A DNA stretch of 63,119 bases, counting the filler, from Klebsormidium nitens (lineage: Eukaryota; Plantae; Klebsormidiophyceae): assembly GCA_000708835.1 (NCBI GenBank). It is 8 parts of 8 records of this genome, joined end to end, with 100 filler letters (N's around TTAATTAATTAA, not from the genome) between each part and the next. Parts side by side here need not be neighbours in the genome. Positions count along the whole stretch, not along the records: positions 25,320 to 48,383 come from DF237866.1; 7 more parts are not named here. The stretch is one strand, 5' to 3'. Positions 14,631 through 48,253 of the stretch are shown in pieces. Numbering within the stretch: the first letter of the stretch is position 1; every line of letters begins with the position of its first letter. The position numbers were made by a program, and so were the translations under genes. The notes beneath the pieces are model-generated. The model was not told where the DNA came from, searched no databases, and saw only the letters and a list, made by a program, of their open reading frames with translations.

Positions 14631-14739
14631 NNNNNNNNNNNNNNNNNNNNNNNNNNNNNNNNNNNNNNNNNNNNTTAATTAATTAANNNNNNNNNNNNNN
14701 NNNNNNNNNNNNNNNNNNNNNNNNNNNNNNAAGAACGTT

Positions 14740-35611: not shown

Positions 35612-36019
35612 CTACCGTCTGTGGGACAATCGGGTGCCAATATCGAATAACAGCAGGAAAAAGATCCCGAAAGTCAGGTACATTGTCATCCTCTGCATCT
35701 CATTGTCCGCCGAATACCCCCGTTTGAAATGATTATGACAGTGCGGGCAGAATGACTGCATGGCGGGTGTTCCCAGATGGTCTCCATGGAATCGGTTGTA
35801 TGCATAGGCCGGGTGCATGGGAGCCGACACCTGGTATGGTGCATACTCATAAGCGGAACCGTACTCTGGATATGGTGGTGGGACTCTTATGTTGCTGTTG
35901 CGACGTTTTGAGAATTCATCTTCGGCTTTAGAACCTCCATGTCTGCGCCCCCTGCTTTTGAGTGGTGGTTCTTCGCTCTTGGTTGAGGCCCAAATTTCGT
36001 CCAAAGGTGCGTAGTCCAT
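35612..36019 (-). CDS. Small viral membrane protein with a single C-terminal TM helix
   Basis: MDYAPLDEIW N-terminus and MYLTFGIFFLLLFD C-terminus, an architecture common in NCLDV genomes. Confidence 0.6.
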   Translation of the reverse strand: MDYAPLDEIWASTKSEEPPLKSRGRRHGGSKAEDEFSKRRNSNIRVPPPYPEYGSAYEYAPYQVSAPMHPAYAYNRFHGDHLGTPAMQSFCPHCHNHFKRGYSADNEMQRMTMYLTFGIFFLLLFDIGTRLSHRR

Positions 36020-36155
36020 GCTATAGTTGTGCAGAGAAAAAGACAGTACTCACCGTGCAGCGAGAATCCCTCAACACCTTGACAACAACCATACAACCAA
36101 CATCTTAGCCTGGTTTGTAAGCAACAGCAGCCTTGTGACGATGCGCAGATGGAGC

Positions 36156-36780
36156 GCAAGTTTCAAAAGTATTTCAGGATTTGAGACACCGCTTTTTTCG
36201 CTATAGGAGGGGGGTGGANNNNNNNNNNNNNNNNNNNNNNNNNNNNNNNNNNNNNNNNNNNNNNNNNNNNNNNNNNNNNNNNNNNNNNNNNNNNNNNNNN
36301 NNNNNNNNNNNNNNNNNNNNNNNNNNNNNNNNNNNNNNNNNNNNNNNNNNNNNNNNNNNNNNNNNNNNNNNNNNNNNNNNNNNNNNNNNNNNNNNNNNNN
36401 NNNNNNNNNNNNNNNNNNNNNNNNNNNNNNNNNNNNNNNNNNNNNNNNNNNNNNNNNNNNNNNNNNNNNNNNNNNNNNNNNNNNNNNNNNNNNNNNNNNN
36501 NNNNNNNNNNNNNNNNNNNNNNNNNNNNNNNNNNNNNNNNNNNNNNNNNNNNNNNNNNNNNNNNNNNNNNNNNNNNNNNNNNNNNNNNNNNNNNNNNNNN
36601 NNNNNNNNNNNNNNNNNNNNNNNNNNNNNNNNNNNNNNNNNNNNNNNNNNNNNNNNNNNNNNNNNNNNNNNNNNNNNNNNNNNNNNNNNNNNNNNNNNNN
36701 NNNNNNNNNNNNNNNNGCAAGTTTCAAAAGTATTTCAAGATTTGAGACACTGCTTTTCTCAATATAGGAGGGGGGTTGAA
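36156..36780. repeat. Diverged ~62-bp direct repeat on both sides of a ~500-N gap
   Basis: 36156-36218 versus 36717-36780 differ at several positions. Confidence 0.7.
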
Positions 36781-37167
36781 TTACCCGCGCCTCCGTGTTA
36801 TCGTCACATCATGCAGGGTGTGATATTGTAGCAGACAGCAATGATACGATGCAGACCGCCACTTGGCTGCTGCTGGCAAATCGGTGCGGGTTGTGAAAGG
36901 CATACCTGACATATTGGTCACCGAGCTTGCCACGGTCAGCCAACCCATGCCCGACGGCGCCACCGGCGTATCCATATAAAAGGCAGACTTGGGGCGACAC
37001 CAACCTCATTCCCAGAAAAGCACTTCAAGCGTTCGAGTGCAAAGGTGGGCAAAATTCTCAGCCTTCTCCCAAGGGACCTTGCATACATACATATCAGCAA
37101 GCCTCCCGGGCCACCAACACTCTCATACTATGTTTTGTTATAATTTCTTTCCTCTCCAGAGAAGGAA

Positions 37168-37358
37168 TTATAACAGATTAGTAGTACAGAGTTTTCCCTT
37201 TGGGTTCCTTTTGGCGATATGTATGTATGTAAGGCCATACCCTCAAAAGATGCAATATTGTAACTCACTTTTTGGAGAAGAGAATATAACAGATTAGTAG
37301 TACAAAGTTTTCCTTCTGAGACCCAATTGCCGATATGTATGTATGTAAGGCCATACCC
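37168..37358. repeat. Two ~75-bp direct repeats, period ~116 bp, each ending in a GTATG-taaggc-CATAC hairpin
   Basis: TATAACAGATTAGTAGTACA...GATATGTATGTATGTAAGGCCATACCC occurs twice. Confidence 0.8.
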
Positions 37359-37404
37359 AAAAGGCCCTGTTGCTGCTTCTGAGAGAAAATCTTTGGACGT
37401 GTGA

Positions 37405-39456: not shown

Positions 39457-40008
39457 ATGGCACCAAGAACTGGATCAAAGAAGGGACAGAAGGCGGCTGA
39501 GCCCGTTGAGGCAAGCGAGCCGAGGCCCGTTGACACACAAGACGTGGTACCCAAGGAGCCACCGGCATCTAGGCATGGGCCAGAGGCAGGGGATGATATC
39601 ATGAAGGCCCTCAGCAAGCTGCAGAGATCGATCAACAAAACACAAAAGGCTGTGCAGTCCCTCCAGGCAGCATCCCAGGGGCAGGGGGGAGAGAGTGTGC
39701 AACCCGCGAAGCCCAAGAAGGAGCCCAGTGGTTTCGCAAAGCCGAGCCGCATCTCGAACGAGCTTAGCAGCTTTCTTGGGGTTCCTTCCAATACAAGGCT
39801 TGCTCGCACACAGGTTACGAAGCTCCTGACCGAGTACATCAAGAAGAACGACCTGCAGTGCCCCGACAACCGCCGCAACATCCGACTCGATGACAAGCTC
39901 AAGGATCTGCTCAAGGTCCCAGAGGGCACCGTGGTGACGTTCTTCAATCTGCAGAAGCATTGCAAGAACCACTACATCTCTGATGACGAAGAAGTTGCCT
40001 CAGAGTAG
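39457..40008 (+). CDS. SWIB/MDM2-domain protein
   Basis: SGFAKPSRISNELSSFLG...RTQVTKLLTEYIKKNDLQ..DNRRNI..DDKLKDLL...TFFNLQKH. Confidence 0.93.
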   Translation: MAPRTGSKKGQKAAEPVEASEPRPVDTQDVVPKEPPASRHGPEAGDDIMKALSKLQRSINKTQKAVQSLQAASQGQGGESVQPAKPKKEPSGFAKPSRISNELSSFLGVPSNTRLARTQVTKLLTEYIKKNDLQCPDNRRNIRLDDKLKDLLKVPEGTVVTFFNLQKHCKNHYISDDEEVASE

Positions 40009-40962
40009 TGTGGATCAGAGTTCAATCATGGAGTAAGACCGGGAGGGCTTCCCAAACTGTAGGCAAAAGTATCGGTAAGCGCAGCCGAGAATGACGGCCA
40101 GAAGAAAGNNNNNNNNNNNNNNNNNNNNNNNNNNNNNNNNNNNNNNNNNNNNNNNNNNNNNNNNNNNNNNNNNNNNNNNNNNNNNNNNNNNNNNNNNNNN
40201 NNNNNNNNNNNNNNNNNNNNNNNNNNNNNNNNNNNNNNNNNNNNNNNNNNNNNNNNNNNNNNNNNNNNNNNNNNNNNNNNNNNNNNNNNNNNNNNNNNNN
40301 NNNNNNNNNNNNNNNNNNNNNNNNNNNNNNNNNNNNNNNNNNNNNNNNNNNNNNNNNNNNNNNNNNNNNNNNNNNNNNNNNNNNNNNNNNNNNNNNNNNN
40401 NNNNNNNNNNNNNNNNNNNNNNNNNNNNNNNNNNNNNNNNNNNNNNNNNNNNNNNNNNNNNNNNNNNNNNNNNNNNNNNNNNNNNNNNNNNNNNNNNNNN
40501 NNNNNNNNNNNNNNNNNNNNNNNNNNNNNNNNNNNNNNNNNNNNNNNNNNNNNNNNNNNNNNNNNNNNNNNNNNNNNNNNNNNNNNNNNNNNNNNNNNNN
40601 NNNNNNNNNNNNNNNNNNNNNNNNNNNNNNNNNNNNNNNNNNNNNNNNNNNNNNNNNNNNNNNNNNNNNNNNNNNNNNNNNNNNNNNNNNNNNNNNNNNN
40701 NNNNNNNNNNNNNNNNNNNNNNNNNNNNNNNNNNNNNNNNNNNNNNNNNNNGTATCGGTAAGCGCAGCCGAGAATGACGGCCAGAAGAAAGACCGAAGTT
40801 GCTGCGACCGTGATGCGGGCCCTTTCAAGCCGGTGAGGTTGCTGAGACTCCCCGGCACAGCAGGCGACCAAGTCATCCATAATAATGAACAATCCTTTGG
40901 CTACTGGAAGCAACACGCGTTGTCCTGCGTGCCGTTTTTTGTGGCTCTCCACTCAAGCACTA

Positions 40963-41232
40963 ATGGAAGCGCTCGAGTGCAGGCTGCAAGCAATCGTGGC
41001 AGACTTTAAGAAGACCCTGCGGGATACAGAGCCCAAGGCCTTGAAGAAGGGCGCTCTGTTGCGCCTGAAACTTATTGGCGAGCAGCTGGTGCGCAGCATC
41101 GAAGCAGAGCTGCACACCGTCATGCGGCTGCAGTACAGAGACACTGATGACGAGTCGTCTGATATCTCTGATGATGAAGCATCTCTCGGTGGTGACGACT
41201 ATCGACCATCAGATTATGTTGCAAGAATGTAA
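40963..41232 (+). CDS. Small hypothetical protein with acidic tail
   Basis: Its stop codon abuts the ATG of the SET gene (TAAATG). Confidence 0.45.
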   Translation: MEALECRLQAIVADFKKTLRDTEPKALKKGALLRLKLIGEQLVRSIEAELHTVMRLQYRDTDDESSDISDDEASLGGDDYRPSDYVARM

Positions 41233-41820
41233 ATGAGGTTTCGATTCTTCAACCAGGAGGGAGTCGAGCGGTTCCAGTGCAACCTCGAGTGCGCCAGCTG
41301 CACAGCTCATAAACGGAATGGTGGTCAGTGCACGCGAAGGGTGTGCATAGGGCTTCCCGCATGCTGGCAGCATTTGCGGACAATCAAAGACGCCAACAGC
41401 GGTTTGAAGATCCAAACATCGGCGATCCCTGGTGCTGGGAAGGGCTTGTTCGCTTGGAGTAAGCACGGTGGGAACAATATCGTGTTTGTGCCAAACGAAA
41501 CCATCTGCACTTACTATGGGGACGTTATCTCCCAGGCAGAGTTTGATGAACGCTATGGGCAAGACACGGGGCCTTACGTTGCAAGGGGCCACGCTGGGCT
41601 ACTCGTCGACGGGGCATGCAAGCGAGGGGCCGGAACCATTGCAAATGGCCGGCGGGGAAACGTTGATTCGAATGCACGGTTTGCCAACAGCCATGCTGGA
41701 GGGGTGCACAGGCTCGCGATAAAGGCGACCAAGAACATTCGGCACGGGCAGGAGATCATTGTACCGTATGGTGCAGACTACTGGCAAAAACACCGCGGTG
41801 TTGCACGTACAACCCGTTGA
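41233..41820 (+). CDS. SET-domain lysine methyltransferase with N-terminal C-C-C-H zinc motif
   Basis: CTAH...QCTRRVCIGLPACWQH; SAIPGAGKGLFA; ICTYYGD; IAN; IKATKNIRHGQEIIVPYGADYW. Confidence 0.9.
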   Translation: MRFRFFNQEGVERFQCNLECASCTAHKRNGGQCTRRVCIGLPACWQHLRTIKDANSGLKIQTSAIPGAGKGLFAWSKHGGNNIVFVPNETICTYYGDVISQAEFDERYGQDTGPYVARGHAGLLVDGACKRGAGTIANGRRGNVDSNARFANSHAGGVHRLAIKATKNIRHGQEIIVPYGADYWQKHRGVARTTR

Positions 41821-41822
41821 AA

Positions 41823-42089
41823 TCAGAAGATTGGTGCTGTTTTCCGTTCCTCTCTACTCCTCAGAATGTTGTTTGCAACATTGAAGAGGACAACTGCGAT
41901 TGCTGCATATTGCACGTCTCCAGCAGCCCAGTAGGCAACAAAGCACTGGAACATGAGTCGGAACAGCGGCTGCTCGAAAAACTGACGGAGCAGGCCTGCA
42001 GGCTCTGGGAACGATCGAGCCGCCATCAGGAACATGAGAGAAACGAGGGCAGCAACCAACTTGTGTTCGTCGAGAGCGGTGAATGCCAT
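41823..42089 (-). CDS. Small multi-pass membrane protein
   Basis: Hydrophobic segments LVAALVSLMFLM, PLFRLMFQCFVAYW, AAIAVVLF. Confidence 0.6.
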   Translation of the reverse strand: MAFTALDEHKLVAALVSLMFLMAARSFPEPAGLLRQFFEQPLFRLMFQCFVAYWAAGDVQYAAIAVVLFNVANNILRSREERKTAPIF

Positions 42090-42120
42090 GTACGCAATGA
42101 AGTGTGTGCAGGAAAAAGTT

Positions 42121-42591
42121 TTAAGCAGCACCCATCACTTCACAGCAACAATCCTCTACGTCCGCATAGTCGTCCTCTATTCTGGTGGGTATACGGAGAG
42201 ACTGTGCGTACGTCAAGACGTACAGTTCGACCTTCCGACCGACGGTCAGGTCTCCTCCAATCTCCCTGAAGCCCTTGGTAGCCAGGACAGTGTGGCCGCA
42301 GCACTCCAGCACCTTGAGCATCTCTACAATCATCCTCCATGTGACATCCTGGGGGATCAGCCTGAGGCTGTCGAACGTCTGAGTGGAATAAGGTGAGCGG
42401 AATGGACGATAATCGACCTTGAACATCCCCCGTTTGTCTTTCCAGTCAAATCGCCCGCAGCGATACACCAGGCCCTTGAGGCATCCTACATTGTTGCACC
42501 GTCTTGCAATCTCTTCTCGTGCAGCCTGCGACCACTGCGCACGGCGGGGGATGAAGTCGATGGCCACCCCTGCATCCGCAACATTCTCCAT
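42121..42591 (-). CDS. Hypothetical protein
   Basis: Clean 156-aa ORF in a co-directional run; no recognised domain. Confidence 0.5.
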   Translation of the reverse strand: MENVADAGVAIDFIPRRAQWSQAAREEIARRCNNVGCLKGLVYRCGRFDWKDKRGMFKVDYRPFRSPYSTQTFDSLRLIPQDVTWRMIVEMLKVLECCGHTVLATKGFREIGGDLTVGRKVELYVLTYAQSLRIPTRIEDDYADVEDCCCEVMGAA

Positions 42592-42632
42592 GGCTGTTAG
42601 ACCGATTGTCCATTTCTCTCATACGCGTCTTC

Positions 42633-43463
42633 TTAAGCCACGCTGAGGTTGTTGAAGAGGCGGACAATGGACGAATTGTCGAGGACTGTCCCATCTTTGA
42701 AGAATATAATCGAGAAGGTTCTTTTAAGAGCCTTTGAGGGCATGCCTTCGTCGCCTGTTGAGTTGGACAGGACGTACTTGCGGGGGAACAGACGGAGGGA
42801 CTCTGCAATCTGATTGTTGAGAGCGCGCGGTAGCTCAACCCTTGTCTCTTCTCCCGTTTGCTTCTTGCAGGCTCTGTGAAAGGTGAACGTGTTGATGCAC
42901 GTCTCAACGAGGTTGTCCACCGATCTGTCTGTGCGTGTTTCACCAAGCCGGACCACCTTCACATGAGCAAGATCGGAATGTAACGGTTTAATGGCAGAGT
43001 AGAGGCTCAGCATAAGGCTCTGAAACAAAAGGCCCTTCTCTGAGTCACTGAGGTTGCCGGCCCCTTTAGGATACAGCTTCTCCTTGACCTCCTTTGCAAG
43101 GCATTTCTTCGTCCGCTCGATCTCCGCTTTTCCAACCGATGTCTTCATCACCTCCTGTTCTGATTTTCTCTCTTCAGCCAGATCATGCATAGCTTCAACA
43201 AACAACGAGTGATATCTCTGGAGCAGCTCCTCATGTTGCCCTCTCTTCAAGAGCAGGATGACCGGTATGAGGTAGAGCTTGCGAGATGCCGGCTTGTAAC
43301 CTGCCAGTGCTGTGGATACTGCATCAACATCGCTGAGCCACACAAGGTTTTCCATGTTTGGGCGTCCGGTTACCCGCTTATGTAGCCGCTGCAGCAGCGA
43401 TAAGTACTGCGTGATTGTGCTCGTGCTTCTGCCTTCCCCTGCGAGCAGCTTGGTGATATCCAT
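42633..43463 (-). CDS. Catalytically dead, C-terminally truncated tyrosine-recombinase paralog
   Basis: Aligns end to end with the upstream recombinase (YKPASRKLY, FPRKY.LSN) but has PLHSD for PLRND, lacks the YKT lysine and the LRK box, and ends before the GH...Y segment; ORF uninterrupted. Confidence 0.8.
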   Translation of the reverse strand: MDITKLLAGEGRSTSTITQYLSLLQRLHKRVTGRPNMENLVWLSDVDAVSTALAGYKPASRKLYLIPVILLLKRGQHEELLQRYHSLFVEAMHDLAEERKSEQEVMKTSVGKAEIERTKKCLAKEVKEKLYPKGAGNLSDSEKGLLFQSLMLSLYSAIKPLHSDLAHVKVVRLGETRTDRSVDNLVETCINTFTFHRACKKQTGEETRVELPRALNNQIAESLRLFPRKYVLSNSTGDEGMPSKALKRTFSIIFFKDGTVLDNSSIVRLFNNLSVA

Positions 43464-43503
43464 GCTTCTTTTGATCATTTTCTGGAGAGCACGTACGCTG
43501 CTT

Positions 43504-44448
43504 TCAGACCCTTCTGTAAACCCGCTCTGCAATCTCGGCAGAGTGGCCCATACTTGCTGCGATTGCGTGCCTCTCTTTCAAGGTGACCTCGTCCTTGTAC
43601 AGCTCACTCAGGAAGATCTTTCTCAGCATCCATGACCCTACGTGTTTCCCTTCCTTCTCAAAGATCTGCCCAAACGTCTTGCTCAGGTAGGCTGGAGACA
43701 TGTGCTGGTCCCCGTTTGTCAGATTCGAGAGGAGATATTTCCTCGGGAAGAGTTTGAGGCTGTCCGAAACAATCTTGTTGACAGCTCTTGGGAACGGGGT
43801 TGTCTTATCGCCGTACGCCTTGTGGGTCTTGTAATGACGCAGGAGCATCGTGTAGGATCCTGGTGGGCCCTCTACGAGTACGTTCAGCTTTTGATCTGCC
43901 TCTGACTGCTCTTGCCCGTGGGGTATGATCTTGACCTCTGCATAATCGTTGCGGAGAGGGTTCATCTTTGAGTACAGGTTCAGTATGAGGTGGTGCGTGA
44001 TAGTCCTGCGGTCTTCGAGATCAATCTCTTCGAGCTTTTTTCCAACGATTCGTTTTCGTATGATCCTCTGAAGCTTGTCAATCTTGTTCTTCACATCTTT
44101 GAGGGTGATCCAGTTTTTCAACTCGCGCTCCGTCTTTGTCTGCTCGAGGTTGTCCTTGCTTGCAACCTCCTTTAAGCACTTTTCGAGCTCCTCAGAGTAC
44201 TTGGAGTGCAGTTCGCCCTCGTCACAGCCTTTCAGGAGAACGACGATTGGGACGATGTAAAGCTTCCTGGACGCAGGCTTGTAGTGGCTGATTGAGCTCA
44301 TAACCGAGTCCAAGTCTCTCAGCCAGTGAATATCATCAAAGTTCTCTGATCCTGTGAGCATGCGGTGAAGGCGCTTGAGAATAGTAATATATTGTGTCAC
44401 TGTTGTGTCTGATCGCCTCTCGCCGGAAAGAAGGTTCCGGAGGTCCAT
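43504..44448 (-). CDS. Tyrosine recombinase/integrase (NCLDV/PLV type), catalytic residues intact
   Basis: NPLRND (R), HYKT (K), WMLRKIFLS (R), MGHS (H), RVY (Y). Confidence 0.9.
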   Translation of the reverse strand: MDLRNLLSGERRSDTTVTQYITILKRLHRMLTGSENFDDIHWLRDLDSVMSSISHYKPASRKLYIVPIVVLLKGCDEGELHSKYSEELEKCLKEVASKDNLEQTKTERELKNWITLKDVKNKIDKLQRIIRKRIVGKKLEEIDLEDRRTITHHLILNLYSKMNPLRNDYAEVKIIPHGQEQSEADQKLNVLVEGPPGSYTMLLRHYKTHKAYGDKTTPFPRAVNKIVSDSLKLFPRKYLLSNLTNGDQHMSPAYLSKTFGQIFEKEGKHVGSWMLRKIFLSELYKDEVTLKERHAIAASMGHSAEIAERVYRRV

Positions 44449-44648
44449 CCGCCCTACTTCAAACGCAGATAATTTTCTAACATGGAGTGCACTATTGATT
44501 ACTTCGGTACGGTTCAGACACAAATGGGCAGATGCGCAGGTGGTTTGTACCCCCATCCCTATTATCAAAACAACATCATCCCGATTTTGAAATACTCTTG
44601 AAAGTTTGTCTCCATCCGTGTATATGCGCACGCCCGTCATTTATTATA

Positions 44649-46085
44649 ATGTCATTGCATTCTCGTTTGAAACACGTGAATGTATATCTCACAAGTGGCA
44701 TGGATGACTTCAGTGTGGAGTACGCCAGTTTCAACGAAGATGGCACTCGTATGACTGCGACACAGAGGAAGGAAGCCAAGGAGGCTGCAAATTTCCTGAA
44801 GCGAGTCACCCACACTGTAGCACGGTGCAGAGAGATTGAGAGCATGCTGCAAGAGGTCCGGGCCATACTTCCTGCCTTTGACGAGAGACAGCTTGTTTTG
44901 CGGAATAGATGGAATAGCAGCCTGAAGCAGCTGAAGACAAGAGGGATTGACACCGTTCGTTACACGATGCCAGAGTTTGATGGAACGTGCCAGGAATGTA
45001 CTAGTGGTCTTTCAGAGAGAATGGCCTGTGCTATACTCTGTGAAACACATGTGAAGTGGGTATGCATTTCGTGTGTCCCAGGTGGAGAGCGCATAGAAGC
45101 AAAAGCTGCACTGAGAGCCCTCCGGCAGGAGGTAGAGACGAGGATGAACAATCTTCATCAGACATTGGGGGAGCTTGGGGCTTTAGAACTGCAAGGTAGA
45201 GTGCGCACTCTTATTGACATTGTGCAAGTACTGAAAAGCTCTGCAAGAACGCCGTTGGATGATGATGGTTCCCAGGACATATGGACAGGCATTAGGGGCT
45301 TTGAAAGGTATGCATGGCAACTGGCTCTGAGTGCAAGCCCTGAGTTTCCAGCTGACATCATAGGACAGTGCCTGGTCTATCAATCCATGACTGTCATTGA
45401 GCGCAAGGCTTTAGCTCAGCTGCATGCACGCGTGAAGGACATGCACAATCGGGTGTTCCATCTAGATATTGACCTGTTGATAAAAGAGTCCGTTGTGGGA
45501 AGGAACAAAGCTATTCGTGGGCGCTTCAAAGGCCGACTTGTGGAGGTAATCACGCTCGAGGATGCCAGGCGACAGTGGGACCTCCAAAAAGAGTTGTGTT
45601 CGAGTTGCGGTGAAGCCTTGCTGTGGAGCAGGCTGGTTGGAGGGACCACCAACTTTCCAGAGTTGGATCGGTCAGATGTGAGATTAGCCACATACGTTGA
45701 CAACTTTACTTGGATGTGCCACTGGTGCAATACCAGCAAGGGCTTACGGACAGACCTCCGTGCTTATGATGAAGCACTCTTGGACACTATCACAACAGTA
45801 CAGGAATCAATTGCCAACGGGGAAATTGACAATGACAAGGAGTCGCTTCTCAGAATGTTGCATGAGGAGATTGCTCGGCAGGCAAGCCGACAGGGCTTTC
45901 TGTCCATGACACAGAGTAAAACTGCCATATGGGGGCAATCTGCTGTGATTGATCCATGTCAGCTGTTGCAAAAGACGCAATGCGCCTCCTGTTCGGAAGC
46001 TCTGTTGTCTTTAGAAGGGCTTGGAGCACAGCCCGGCGCACAATACCTTGTGCTGCTTCCAGTCTTTCTTGAAGCAAGCCTGTGA
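44649..46085 (+). CDS. Cys-rich protein with HNH-like (His-Me finger) motif
   Basis: CSSCG...LDRSD..LATYVDN...MCHWCNTSKG matches the C-x2-C...DR-x-D...N...C-x2-CN-x2-K pattern; additional CxxC pairs and a coiled coil. Confidence 0.6.
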   Translation: MSLHSRLKHVNVYLTSGMDDFSVEYASFNEDGTRMTATQRKEAKEAANFLKRVTHTVARCREIESMLQEVRAILPAFDERQLVLRNRWNSSLKQLKTRGIDTVRYTMPEFDGTCQECTSGLSERMACAILCETHVKWVCISCVPGGERIEAKAALRALRQEVETRMNNLHQTLGELGALELQGRVRTLIDIVQVLKSSARTPLDDDGSQDIWTGIRGFERYAWQLALSASPEFPADIIGQCLVYQSMTVIERKALAQLHARVKDMHNRVFHLDIDLLIKESVVGRNKAIRGRFKGRLVEVITLEDARRQWDLQKELCSSCGEALLWSRLVGGTTNFPELDRSDVRLATYVDNFTWMCHWCNTSKGLRTDLRAYDEALLDTITTVQESIANGEIDNDKESLLRMLHEEIARQASRQGFLSMTQSKTAIWGQSAVIDPCQLLQKTQCASCSEALLSLEGLGAQPGAQYLVLLPVFLEASL

Positions 46086-46328
46086 GCAATACGTTGCCTG
46101 CCTGCATTGTGAACACCTCTGCCTGCTATGCTTACCACAAACCATGCACGAACCCGTGACCACAGACAGCCTGCTCTCAACTTCAGCAATAGACATCTGA
46201 ACGCTGGATTCCAATCTATCAGCTTCAAACACGAAGCGTTCTCTTTCAGCCAGGGTCAACCAGACGGCGTTGTTGCTCTCACTGCGTGGGTTCTGCACCT
46301 CGACCCTGATTGCAATCTTCCCCGGCAC
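46011..46328 (-). CDS. MYND zinc-finger protein
   Basis: CMVCG...RCSQCRQATYCSQACFKKDWKQHKVLC. Confidence 0.9.
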   Translation of the reverse strand: MPGKIAIRVEVQNPRSESNNAVWLTLAERERFVFEADRLESSVQMSIAEVESRLSVVTGSCMVCGKHSRQRCSQCRQATYCSQACFKKDWKQHKVLCAGLCSKPF

Positions 46329-46446
46329 ATGTGGAGGGCAGGGGTAGGACGCAGCTGAATAGGGGCTGCAGCTGTTAAGACGGCTCGTGGACCTGAACGC
46401 AGGTGCGTTTAAATCTCGTCAAAAAACCCTTGGGGTATCTCAGATC

Positions 46447-47220
46447 ATGACCAATGAGCAGCGCTACCTCGGCACCCATGCTGCCAAGCAGGTGCTTGGG
46501 GTCTGTGGGGCCACCCTCAGACAATGGGCCGACTCGGGCCTCATCACCTCCTTCAAGACCCCAGGGGGCAAGTACAGGTATCTCATCGACAACGTCATCT
46601 CAGGGGGCTCAGCGGACACAAGGGCCGAGGAGCTCCAGAGGCCCGCAACGGAGAAGCAGAAGGTCTGCTACTGCAGGGTCTCAAGCCTTGGCCAGAAGGC
46701 CGACCTGGATCGCCAAGCCCAGTACATGCAGTCCAGATACCCAGAGCACACAATTATCCGAGACATCGGCTCAGGCATCAACTTCAAGAGGAAGGGCCTT
46801 CAGACCATTTTGGAACTCGCATTCAGAGGCCGCCTCGAGGAGGTTGTGGTTGCCTACCGTGACCGGCTGTGCCGCTTTGCCTACGAATTGGTCGCCTGGA
46901 TCTTTCATCAGCATGGCGTCAGGCTCGTGGTACTCAATGAAGAGGTGGGAGGCTGCGAAGCCGAGCTCTCTCAAGACCTCCTGGCCATCGTACAAGTCTT
47001 CTGCTGCAGAGTCAACGGCAAACGGAAGTACAAGAGAGACAAGCCTCAAGAGAGTGATAAGGATCAGGATCTATCCCAATCAGGAAGGGCGGACGATCCT
47101 GAAGCGCTGGTTCGGTTGTGCCAGGAAGACATACAACATGGCCCTCGAAGCGCTCAAGAAGCGCACAGCCCACAAGCGGACGGAGGCTTGGCTCAAGAAC
47201 CGCTTCACCAGGGCCTCTAA
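46447..47220 (+). CDS. tnpA: IS607-family TnpA serine recombinase
   Basis: MerR-like HTH (AAKQVLGV...TLRQWADSG...TPGGKYRY), catalytic YCRVSS, DIGSG, YRDRLCRF, EL.QDLLAI..VF. Confidence 0.95.
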   Translation: MTNEQRYLGTHAAKQVLGVCGATLRQWADSGLITSFKTPGGKYRYLIDNVISGGSADTRAEELQRPATEKQKVCYCRVSSLGQKADLDRQAQYMQSRYPEHTIIRDIGSGINFKRKGLQTILELAFRGRLEEVVVAYRDRLCRFAYELVAWIFHQHGVRLVVLNEEVGGCEAELSQDLLAIVQVFCCRVNGKRKYKRDKPQESDKDQDLSQSGRADDPEALVRLCQEDIQHGPRSAQEAHSPQADGGLAQEPLHQGL

Positions 47221-48253
47221 CGTGTCGAAGGCCAATTCGTTCCTCCTTGACACGCCGACTCATGTCCGGGACGGGGCTATTGCTGACTTGATGAAGGGCC
47301 TGAGGAACGAGGTCGCAAAGAAGCGCAAGAACGGCTCTCACGCCTTCGAGATGAGATACCGGTCAAAGAAGGAAGTTCAGAGCTTATATCTGGAGAAGAC
47401 GGCCATCAAGAAGCTCATCCATGCAGATTCCCATTCTGACTTCCTCTCGATGTATCCGACTCACGTCACCAATGCAATTTTCCTTATCTCCAAGAAAGCC
47501 TCCTTACTGAACTGCCGAGGCAAAGTTTCCTTTGACGCGCGCCTCGTGATGGACAAGCTGGGTCACTTTCACATCCACGCCACTGTTGAGAAGGATGAGA
47601 TCCCTTCCGAGAACCAAGGAAGGGGTATTGTTGCTCTTGATCCAGGGGTGAGGACTTTCATGACCGCCTACAGCCCATCCGACAACGTGGCCTTTCAGAT
47701 CGCTCCAGGGTGCATTCAGCGCATGGTTCGGCTCGAGCACCATATTGACCGACTGCGCTCAGAGATCTCTCTGCTTCCTCCTCAATGCAAAGGACGAGCT
47801 CGTAGGATGCGCAAGGCAGCCTTAAGGCTGCATAAACGAGTCTCGAACCTCACATCTGAGGTGCATTGGAAGGTGGCACAGTTCTTGACCGATCGGTTCC
47901 AGACAATTGTTCTGCCCCCTTTTGCAACTCAAGAGATGTGCTCAAGGACCGGGGACAGACAAAGGAGGATCGGCAAGAGCACGAGCCGCAAGATGCACCT
48001 TTGGGGCCACTACACGTTCCGCACAAGGTTGGCAATGAAGTGCAAGGAGCGTGGATGCGATCTGAAGGTTCTCGATGAGGTGTACACAACCAAGACGTGT
48101 ACGGGCTGTGGATGGGTCCATGACACGATTGGCGGCTCAAAGGTCTTCCTTTGCCAGGGGTGTGGGTTGGAGACGGATCGAGACATCAATGGTGCAAGGA
48201 ACATCTTCCTCAAGCACCACAAGCGCCTGATGGGGGGCTCACTGCCCTCCTGA
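46937..48253 (+). CDS. Fanzor2/TnpB RNA-guided nuclease (frame open from 46454)
   Basis: IRIYP N-terminal motif; RuvC-I ALDPGVRTF; VLPPF in place of the canonical RuvC-II Glu with relocated Glu in LDEVYTTKTC; zinc ribbon CTGC...CQGC; RuvC-III DRDINGARNI. Confidence 0.93.
   Translation: MKRWEAAKPSSLKTSWPSYKSSAAESTANGSTRETSLKRVIRIRIYPNQEGRTILKRWFGCARKTYNMALEALKKRTAHKRTEAWLKNRFTRASNVSKANSFLLDTPTHVRDGAIADLMKGLRNEVAKKRKNGSHAFEMRYRSKKEVQSLYLEKTAIKKLIHADSHSDFLSMYPTHVTNAIFLISKKASLLNCRGKVSFDARLVMDKLGHFHIHATVEKDEIPSENQGRGIVALDPGVRTFMTAYSPSDNVAFQIAPGCIQRMVRLEHHIDRLRSEISLLPPQCKGRARRMRKAALRLHKRVSNLTSEVHWKVAQFLTDRFQTIVLPPFATQEMCSRTGDRQRRIGKSTSRKMHLWGHYTFRTRLAMKCKERGCDLKVLDEVYTTKTCTGCGWVHDTIGGSKVFLCQGCGLETDRDINGARNIFLKHHKRLMGGSLPS

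Follow-up and report, generated by a model that had tools for sequence, protein, structure and literature searches.

A catalytically dead tyrosine recombinase paralogue beside its active sister in a giant-virus-like block from Klebsormidium nitens

Why would a virus lineage keep, immediately next to a recombinase gene, a second copy that has lost its catalytic residues? This question is raised by a pair of neighbouring genes in a stretch of 63,119 nucleotides from the alga Klebsormidium nitens (the window, that is, the whole stretch of DNA analysed here). How giant viruses enter and leave algal genomes and stay latent is a largely open question, and a preliminary description of the pair had interpreted it as an active and an inactive recombinase that might act together as a latency switch for a provirus.

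The recombinase pair and its genomic setting

The pair and the parts associated with it are the following:

22561-48383 (no strand assigned): giant-virus (Nucleocytoviricota-like) block around the pair, with P8 minor capsid, SWIB, SET, ABC1 kinase, GT25, DUF5767 and an IS607-type element
43504-44448 (minus): predicted active tyrosine recombinase, 314 aa, with core-binding and catalytic domains, R166/K207/R276/H302/Y311, and W273 at the first His position
43464-43503 (minus): spacer of 40 bp between the active and dead genes, where relatives carry an insertion of ~12 nt
42633-43463 (minus): catalytically dead paralogue, 276 aa, with conserved core-binding domain and deleted His/Tyr arm; possible alternative start at 43478
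42121-42591 (minus): ORF156, third co-directional gene, 41 bp downstream of the dead copy, of no known family

As first described, the two recombinase ORFs are co-directional paralogues on the minus strand separated by 40 bp, and their products are 34% identical over 281 columns (E 3e-55). The ORF at 44448-43504 is a tyrosine recombinase according to its fold and catalytic residues, and its cleavage activity is predicted. The full R-K-R-H-Y set ascribed to it was borne out in an alignment of 139 family members, in which R166, R276, H302 and Y311 were invariant and K207 was at least 90% conserved. This alignment was drawn from 172 proteins by leaving out the 10 of the dead clade and 23 others that were fragmentary, nearly duplicate or of odd length. 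A profile search had given 5,897 representatives of the family at E up to 0.001, of which the best 150 were listed. Outside the dead clade, all five catalytic residues were kept in 151 of 162 proteins, and the rest comprised seven proteins with four residues, two with three and two fragments, one of them itself a dead-clade piece. Catalytic loss among the 172 proteins was limited to the dead clade, bar fragments and single substitutions. The first position of the H-x-x-R motif is occupied by Trp (W273) in the active enzyme and by T (58), S (51), N (28) or W (13) in the family (n=162), with His in 0 of the 162 proteins, so that Trp at this position is a family-wide variant and no sign of decay.

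The structure model of the enzyme was confident (pLDDT 96), with XerA, Cre and XerH as top PDB matches (TM about 0.6 to Cre). In a Pfam search neither the active nor the dead protein gave a match when queried singly, and PF00589 (Phage_integrase) was matched by 24 of the 139 family members. Protelomerases (telomere resolvases) carry K-x-x-R in place of H-x-x-R; such an identity was rejected for the active copy, which belongs to a family with W, T, S or N at this position and for which TelA ranks 46th (TM 0.40). The ResT/TelK cluster reached a score of 0.94, but with just 136 of 256 features in common with the dead copy. The reaction run by the enzyme may be either host integration/excision or resolution of viral genome multimers. 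According to structural matches to the active model, the family is also present in isolated giant viruses, which we take to be lytic. From the accessible text of the respective sources, phaeovirus tyrosine recombinases have been proposed as integrases (PMC13236599), and a homologue in a poxvirus has been suggested to resolve dimers (PMC11296320).

The second ORF, at 43463-42633, keeps an intact frame over its 276 codons, with no internal stop, and an in-frame ATG at 43478 is its possible true start. It has His at the R166 position and Val at the R276 position, and its C-terminus is ~30 residues short, ending before the His/Tyr arm as had been noted, with H302 and Y311 missing. The initial claim that every catalytic residue was lost is firm for four of the five; the loss of the lysine is alignment-dependent, since its column holds Cys by global alignments and Lys by local-pair alignment, with 7 of the 8 dead copies having K or R there in the latter; the YKT motif itself is lost. 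Tyr and His are missing in 10/10 dead-clade proteins and the first Arg is kept in 1/10; in a global alignment of these ten proteins, seven keep none of the five residues and three keep one. The model of the dead copy was moderately confident (pLDDT 68, pTM 0.46), and both recombinase domains are kept in the predicted fold. Its best matches were Ndc10 (Z 8.5; rmsd 15.5, 191 aligned), Cre (7.7) and XerA (7.5), all with high rmsd, followed at lower rank by SroF (6.8), MrpR (5.3) and an ALOG domain (5.2). As these Z values lie close together, they are evidence of a common fold alone. Thirteen of the first 14 matches were, by title or known fold, recombinases or recombinase-fold proteins or domains, the other being a chain of the CBF3-Ndc10 complex. 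Altogether, the ORF encodes a catalytically dead recombinase-fold protein in which the fold is kept and the nucleophile lost.

The viral affiliation of the genes in the block (P8 minor capsid, SWIB, SET, ABC1 kinase, GT25, DUF5767, IS607-type) is in part our own assumption, and no major capsid or polymerase gene was found among 39 ORFs scanned. The window contains seven artificial N44-TTAATTAATTAA-N44 linkers, at 14631, 17886, 22461, 25220, 48384, 55348 and 58209. The block is bounded by such linkers and has another inside, at 25220-25319; neighbourhoods across them are hence no evidence of physical linkage to host-like DNA, and integration (att) junctions are unreadable from the window. A search for a repeat common to the two block ends, both of them artificial linkers, gave none at E 1e-4. 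Retrotransposon and PIF1-helicase ORFs lie to the left of the block.

Several neighbouring genes are described here for completeness. The gene divergent from the recombinase (44649-46085, plus) shows, by eye, CxxC pairs and an HNH-like C-terminal motif and has no Pfam match; its 5′ part was found in runs X6-X8. An IS607-type element at 46387-48253 (plus) consists of a serine recombinase with HTH and a TnpB/Fanzor-like ORF (Pfam Resolvase, Cas12f1-like_TNB). A C5 DNA methyltransferase-like ORF followed by an overlapping methyl-CpG-binding-domain ORF occupies 31842-32871 (plus), apparently as one gene in two frames. Viral chromatin-related SWIB/MDM2 and SET genes are located near the pair at 39457-41820, and a MYND finger at 46011-46328. 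ORF156 is lineage-specific and co-inherited with the recombinase pair, and it bears conserved Cys/His and an acidic C-terminal motif. It gave no Pfam match; a relationship to kelch-repeat proteins was discarded as spurious, the profile having matched kelch proteins only, over residues 13-51 and with no passing stretch. Klebsormidium nitens records contain homologues of both the active and the dead protein, and public annotation of the homologues is limited to 'hypothetical protein', once as a fused model.

Origin, inheritance and constraint of the dead copy

Nine orthologues of the dead copy were found, at 36-76% identity. Dead homologues with an intact C-terminus stop within a few residues of one another, down to 36% identity; P0024 terminates earlier and P0025 is devoid of its N-terminus. 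In a maximum-likelihood tree of 35 rows (enzymes trimmed to 285 residues, P0025 left out, P0026 a long branch), the nine dead rows formed a single clade (support 100/98), sister to 11 close active rows (99/93) and with mirrored branching. Pairwise identities of active and dead copies were correlated (rho 0.94), the 21 comparisons deriving from seven pairs and so being non-independent. Six of the nine dead homologues have a longest contig equal in size to that of an active homologue (116,760; 92,628; 40,422; 38,924; 7,952; 4,438 bp), a co-location that rests on matching contig sizes and not on reading gene order. The other three had no size-matched active partner, one of them being on a contig too short for both genes. 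Seen from the enzyme, 6 of 12 close active homologues had a size-matched dead partner, and for three on contigs of 29-39 kb there was no dead partner among the matches. Direct adjacency of the pair was observed twice within one contig, at 42001-44386 in run X7 (with 214 letters differing) and at 43119-43680 in run X8; the gaps listed for these contigs affect the spacer and the end of ORF156 but not the dead gene, 4 further gap rows lying beyond the listing. These data indicate, at the level of alignments and trees, that the dead copy arose by one duplication before the radiation of the virus lineage and that it has been vertically co-inherited with the enzyme.

Comparison with runs X6-X8, which represent one related lineage and for which 40 of 488 difference rows were listed, revealed 11 shared substitutions in the dead gene, 8 synonymous and 3 not, and 8 synonymous and 2 nonsynonymous substitutions in the enzyme gene. 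Under neutrality 24-31% would be expected to be synonymous, and the 8/11 observed in the dead gene depart from this value (P 0.0008-0.006). On the same listed rows of that one lineage, rough omega values were 0.12-0.17 for the dead gene vs 0.07-0.11 for the enzyme. Ten residues (G11, R30, G75, F88, A91, M92, H93, R172, L173 and I190) are shared by all of the 8 dead copies aligned, and none of the 9 enzymes has them. Together with the tree and the domain identities given below, these data show purifying selection on the dead copy.

Conservation is unevenly distributed along the protein. Over residues 1-98, the core-binding domain, identity was 0.60 among dead copies vs 0.58 among enzymes (CI of the difference -0.05 to 0.09), whereas over residues 99-283 it was 0.40 vs 0.68 (CI -0.33 to -0.22), in five active/dead pairs. 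The suggestion that the N-terminal binding domain and the core scaffold were kept is confirmed by this comparison and by the predicted fold, and constraint on the dead copy is shown by the alignments to be concentrated in the N-terminal core-binding domain. Four segments are relaxed in dead copies: the KTERELKNW motif of the linker, the loops of the first arginine and of YKT, and the helix of the second arginine. The motif YKPASRKLY is identical in the two paralogues of the window and more strongly conserved in dead copies than in enzymes. Both proteins also have the R-S-x-x-T-x-x-Q-Y segment; in recombinases, the helices of these two segments contact DNA. Dead copies are basic (net charge +8 to +13, n=8; pI 9.3-9.7), the former lysine loop included, and the catalytic-domain recognition helix (~residues 251-263) has diverged between the paralogues and is variable among dead copies. 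Recent gene conversion is an unlikely source of the core-binding conservation, given that the paralogues share 41 of 98 residues, fewer than orthologues do.

From the co-divergence of the orthologues with the active copy and the mostly synonymous character of the sampled substitutions, the dead copy has very probably retained a non-catalytic function of some kind. Against the absence of orthologous dead copies and neutral evolution, the two outcomes that the preliminary description had set against its own proposal, stand the nine orthologues and the predominance of synonymous change in one lineage. Of that wider interpretation, the retained role stands, while a provirus integrase, an interaction of the two proteins and a latency switch are conjectural, the block ending at artificial linkers.

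Possible functions of the dead copy

We tentatively place first, as quite possible though somewhat short of probable, that the dead twin brakes or gates its sister enzyme through the same or overlapping DNA sites and its retained core-binding domain. The dead copy would still bind DNA, with a specificity overlapping that of the enzyme, and would occupy recombination half-sites alone or beside an active subunit. We place it there because its core-binding motifs match those of the enzyme. Cleavage and synapsis would thereby be blocked or biased, up to a change in the relative amounts of the two proteins. The divergence of the recognition helix implies that the site specificity of the dead copy may no longer match that of the enzyme. 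A prediction of the active and dead proteins as a complex, run without alignments and without DNA, gave a score of 0.01 and was counted neither way.

A rival explanation involves a dispersed intergenic repeat of ~100 bp, with an 11-bp-period TTGAAA direct-repeat core and imperfect outer inverted arms, present in the window as four copies:

44529-44630 (plus): repeat copy 1, lying between the start of the recombinase and its divergent neighbour at 44649; core TTGAAA-N5-TTGAAA at 44587-44603
26180-26290 (plus): repeat copy 2
36130-36218 (minus): repeat copy 3, with ORF 35612-36019 (minus) starting ~140 bp downstream of it
36717-36803 (minus): repeat copy 4, in tandem with copy 3 across an N gap

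Four cores were observed vs 0.03 expected, all intergenic and all within the viral block, which makes up 40% of the window; the four copies represent three independent loci. In runs X6-X8 the core (44584-44630) was found on many contigs with differing flanks, with summed depths of 133, 77 and 47 (X6, X7 and X8) vs 2.6-7.5 beside it, a rough guide to copy number. The repeat had no Rfam match and no exact match in viral_contigs, its folding was not unusual (z -0.17 and -1.46), and no loxP-like inverted half-sites were found around its core. It is a candidate operator, promoter or recombination site. Two imperfect direct repeats of 90 bp are also present in the intergenic region at 37159-37363, adjoining the repeat tandem.

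On these grounds the dead copy might be a stand-alone transcription regulator, a monomeric clamp of the MrpR/SroF type that binds the TTGAAA-N5-TTGAAA repeat and represses viral genes, its own cluster included, during latency. We regard this as rather unlikely, yet as the strongest of the alternatives. It would account for the excess of intergenic copies, for the position of copy 1 at 138 bp upstream of the recombinase start, for the repeat-like sequence into which the region upstream of the orthologue likewise runs in X6 and X8, and for the multi-copy core (in X6, a summed depth of 133 vs about 6). The structural neighbours of the dead model include MrpR and SroF, and PMC10516654 describes binding of MrpR to an intergenic repeat that is likewise dispersed. 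However, a link of the repeat to the dead protein is conjectural, and a promoter, origin or small mobile element are other possible identities of the repeat. Moreover, SroF reads its operator largely with helices of the catalytic domain, as far as its source describes, and that region is the relaxed part of the dead copy. A more ambitious version, which we consider unlikely, is that duplication of the integrase gave this lineage of giant viruses of streptophyte algae a lysis-latency controller of its own, in which the dead twin would bind the ~20-copy repeat across the viral genome, silence genes and lock excision, with ORF156 as partner or antagonist. If true, it would give Nucleocytoviricota their first dedicated latency repressor, a case of convergence with the MrpR/SroF proteins of Bacillus phages.

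About equally improbable as that controller is a dead copy serving as an obligatory architectural subunit for productive recombination, in the manner of Tfp/GinC, with ORF156 as auxiliary in a three-gene module. All four homologues of ORF156, the only ones found, lie on contigs of sizes also seen with recombinase homologues (3,534, 116,760, 4,438 and 7,952 bp), and in a K. nitens record the locus tag of the ORF156 homologue is next to that of the dead-copy homologue. In addition, SE elements encode an intA gene adjoining a recombinase-fold protein without RHRY, although the role of Tfp itself is not established, in both respects following the accessible text of PMC10214605. The distribution of the wider family argues against this option: catalytic loss was limited to the dead clade as given above, and in distant viral loci with flanking DNA the recombinase was single-copy in 7/7, an eighth locus being 1.4 kb long. 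The family can thus work without a twin, and a modulator, such as the brake or gate proposed here, fits better than an essential subunit. Close relatives were absent from scans of viral_contigs, and metagenome scans gave one distant locus. On two contigs of 18-19 kb (L002 and L003, from 5806, plus), a distant family member is fused to a long C-terminal extension (~890 aa in L003).

More doubtful still is a structural role for the dead copy, as a DNA-binding protein in the virion core, in viral chromatin or in genome packaging, with no part in recombination control. The basic character of the dead protein would suit such a role, and its top fold match, Ndc10, is an architectural centromere protein. 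The bracovirus proteins vlf-1b-1/-2, which are without the active-site tyrosine, were detected in virions, from what is accessible of PMC3649998. A protein of this kind would, however, not need to stay tightly linked to the enzyme throughout the radiation of the lineage.

It is very unlikely that the two ORFs form one spliced gene giving a tandem active-dead fusion protein. The K. nitens model GAQ92076.1 (535 aa) joins both through a predicted intron and matches 284/284 enzyme residues and 251/252 dead-copy residues, but it omits the first 24 residues of the dead protein, among which M1, L6, L7, G11, R12, Y20 and L24 are invariant in 8 dead copies. In a neighbouring model of the same kind ORF156 is likewise joined to the ORF that follows, a pattern suggestive of over-joining by ab initio prediction.

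Least credible, and largely refuted, is a decaying duplicate not yet carrying a stop: the dead copy does evolve faster than the enzyme outside its N-terminal domain, the copies P0024 and P0025 are shortened, and 4 of 8 listed X5-only changes in the dead gene are nonsynonymous, but full-length orthologues extend to 36% identity with a near-common end point, dead copies have clade-specific invariant residues, and decay also affects the active copies P0010, P0007 and P0029 of this data set. Of the 262 places changed in run X5, 171 are C>T or G>A; with the shortened copies and the nonsynonymous changes, this indicates that integrated copies do decay, and it would fit methylation-driven decay.

Comparison with known systems

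The active copy belongs, by sequence and predicted structure (TM up to 0.82 in BFVD), to the tyrosine recombinases of PLV, virophages and Nucleocytoviricota, and its matches include proteins of Aureococcus anophagefferens virus, Tetraselmis virus 1, Heterosigma akashiwo virus 01 and Qinghai Lake virophage. The distant relatives examined are single-copy in 7/7 informative loci, whereas the dead twin and ORF156 were found only in the present lineage. Ndc10 (CBF3) and ALOG domains (Z 8.5 and 5.2) are eukaryotic DNA-binding proteins from recombinase domains, ALOG domains reportedly being a DNA-binding domain of this derivation; unlike the dead copy, they are host-domesticated and have no adjoining active partner.

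The phaeovirus integrase of Ectocarpus EVEs, likewise a tyrosine recombinase of a giant virus, has been proposed to insert the viral genome into that of its algal host. It differs from the present enzyme in being larger and having mapped att junctions, and no inactive paralogue is mentioned in the accessible portion of the source (PMC13236599); Feldmannia virus matches (620-689 aa) rank only 29 and 33 in the structural search with the active model. Bracovirus vlf-1b-1/-2 and int-2 are likewise paralogues of active tyrosine recombinases that lack the tyrosine, and the virus concerned is a large DNA virus of eukaryotes that can exist as a provirus. As portrayed in the available text (PMC3649998), they are nudivirus-derived and of another family, the likeness being one of sequence loss.

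Among bacterial elements, Tfp (SE elements) and GinC (GInts) are also recombinase-fold proteins without RHRY beside an active tyrosine recombinase, plus a small auxiliary gene. By the account in the accessible text of PMC10214605, the SE/GInt elements have four genes, with two active recombinases (one large) plus Tfp and Srap, Tfp exceeding 550 aa, whereas here one enzyme lies in a giant-virus block. An SE/GInt-type element was rejected for the window, which has only two recombinase-family ORFs, one of them active.

MrpR (YopR) and SroF, master repressors of SPbeta-like phages, resemble the dead copy in the non-catalytic recombinase fold as a viral DNA-binding regulator, a role that is a proposal here, and in the dispersed intergenic repeat. 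They are full length, and SPbeta excision uses a serine recombinase, according to the parts available of PMC10516654 and bioRxiv 2025.11.27.690993; the dead copy is instead a truncated direct paralogue of the adjoining enzyme, with constraint on the core-binding domain. Their Z scores (5.3 and 6.8) are tied with those of ordinary recombinases, homology being compared by fold alone, and by the tree the dead copy appears to have arisen independently of them, from the neighbouring viral enzyme.

The reuse of dead recombinase folds is thus an established principle, known from phages (MrpR, PMC10516654; SroF, bioRxiv 2025.11.27.690993), bacterial elements (Tfp/GinC, PMC10214605) and bracoviruses (vlf-1b, PMC3649998), as far as the accessible texts extend. 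The giant-virus instance was not found in the literature searched: titles and abstract openings described no inactive recombinase paralogue in Nucleocytoviricota or a Klebsormidium virus, survey supplements may list the genes, and in the main text of bioRxiv 2026.10.09.758095, as accessible, the words 'recombinase', 'integrase' and 'repressor' are absent. The cluster of enzyme, dead twin and small partner with a candidate repeat offers two small soluble proteins and a 100-bp site that are directly testable in vitro. The conversion of a recombinase into a regulator, known from Bacillus phages, bacterial elements and yeast, has likely also occurred in a giant-virus lineage, where the parent enzyme is still next door and the steps of the conversion are therefore readable.
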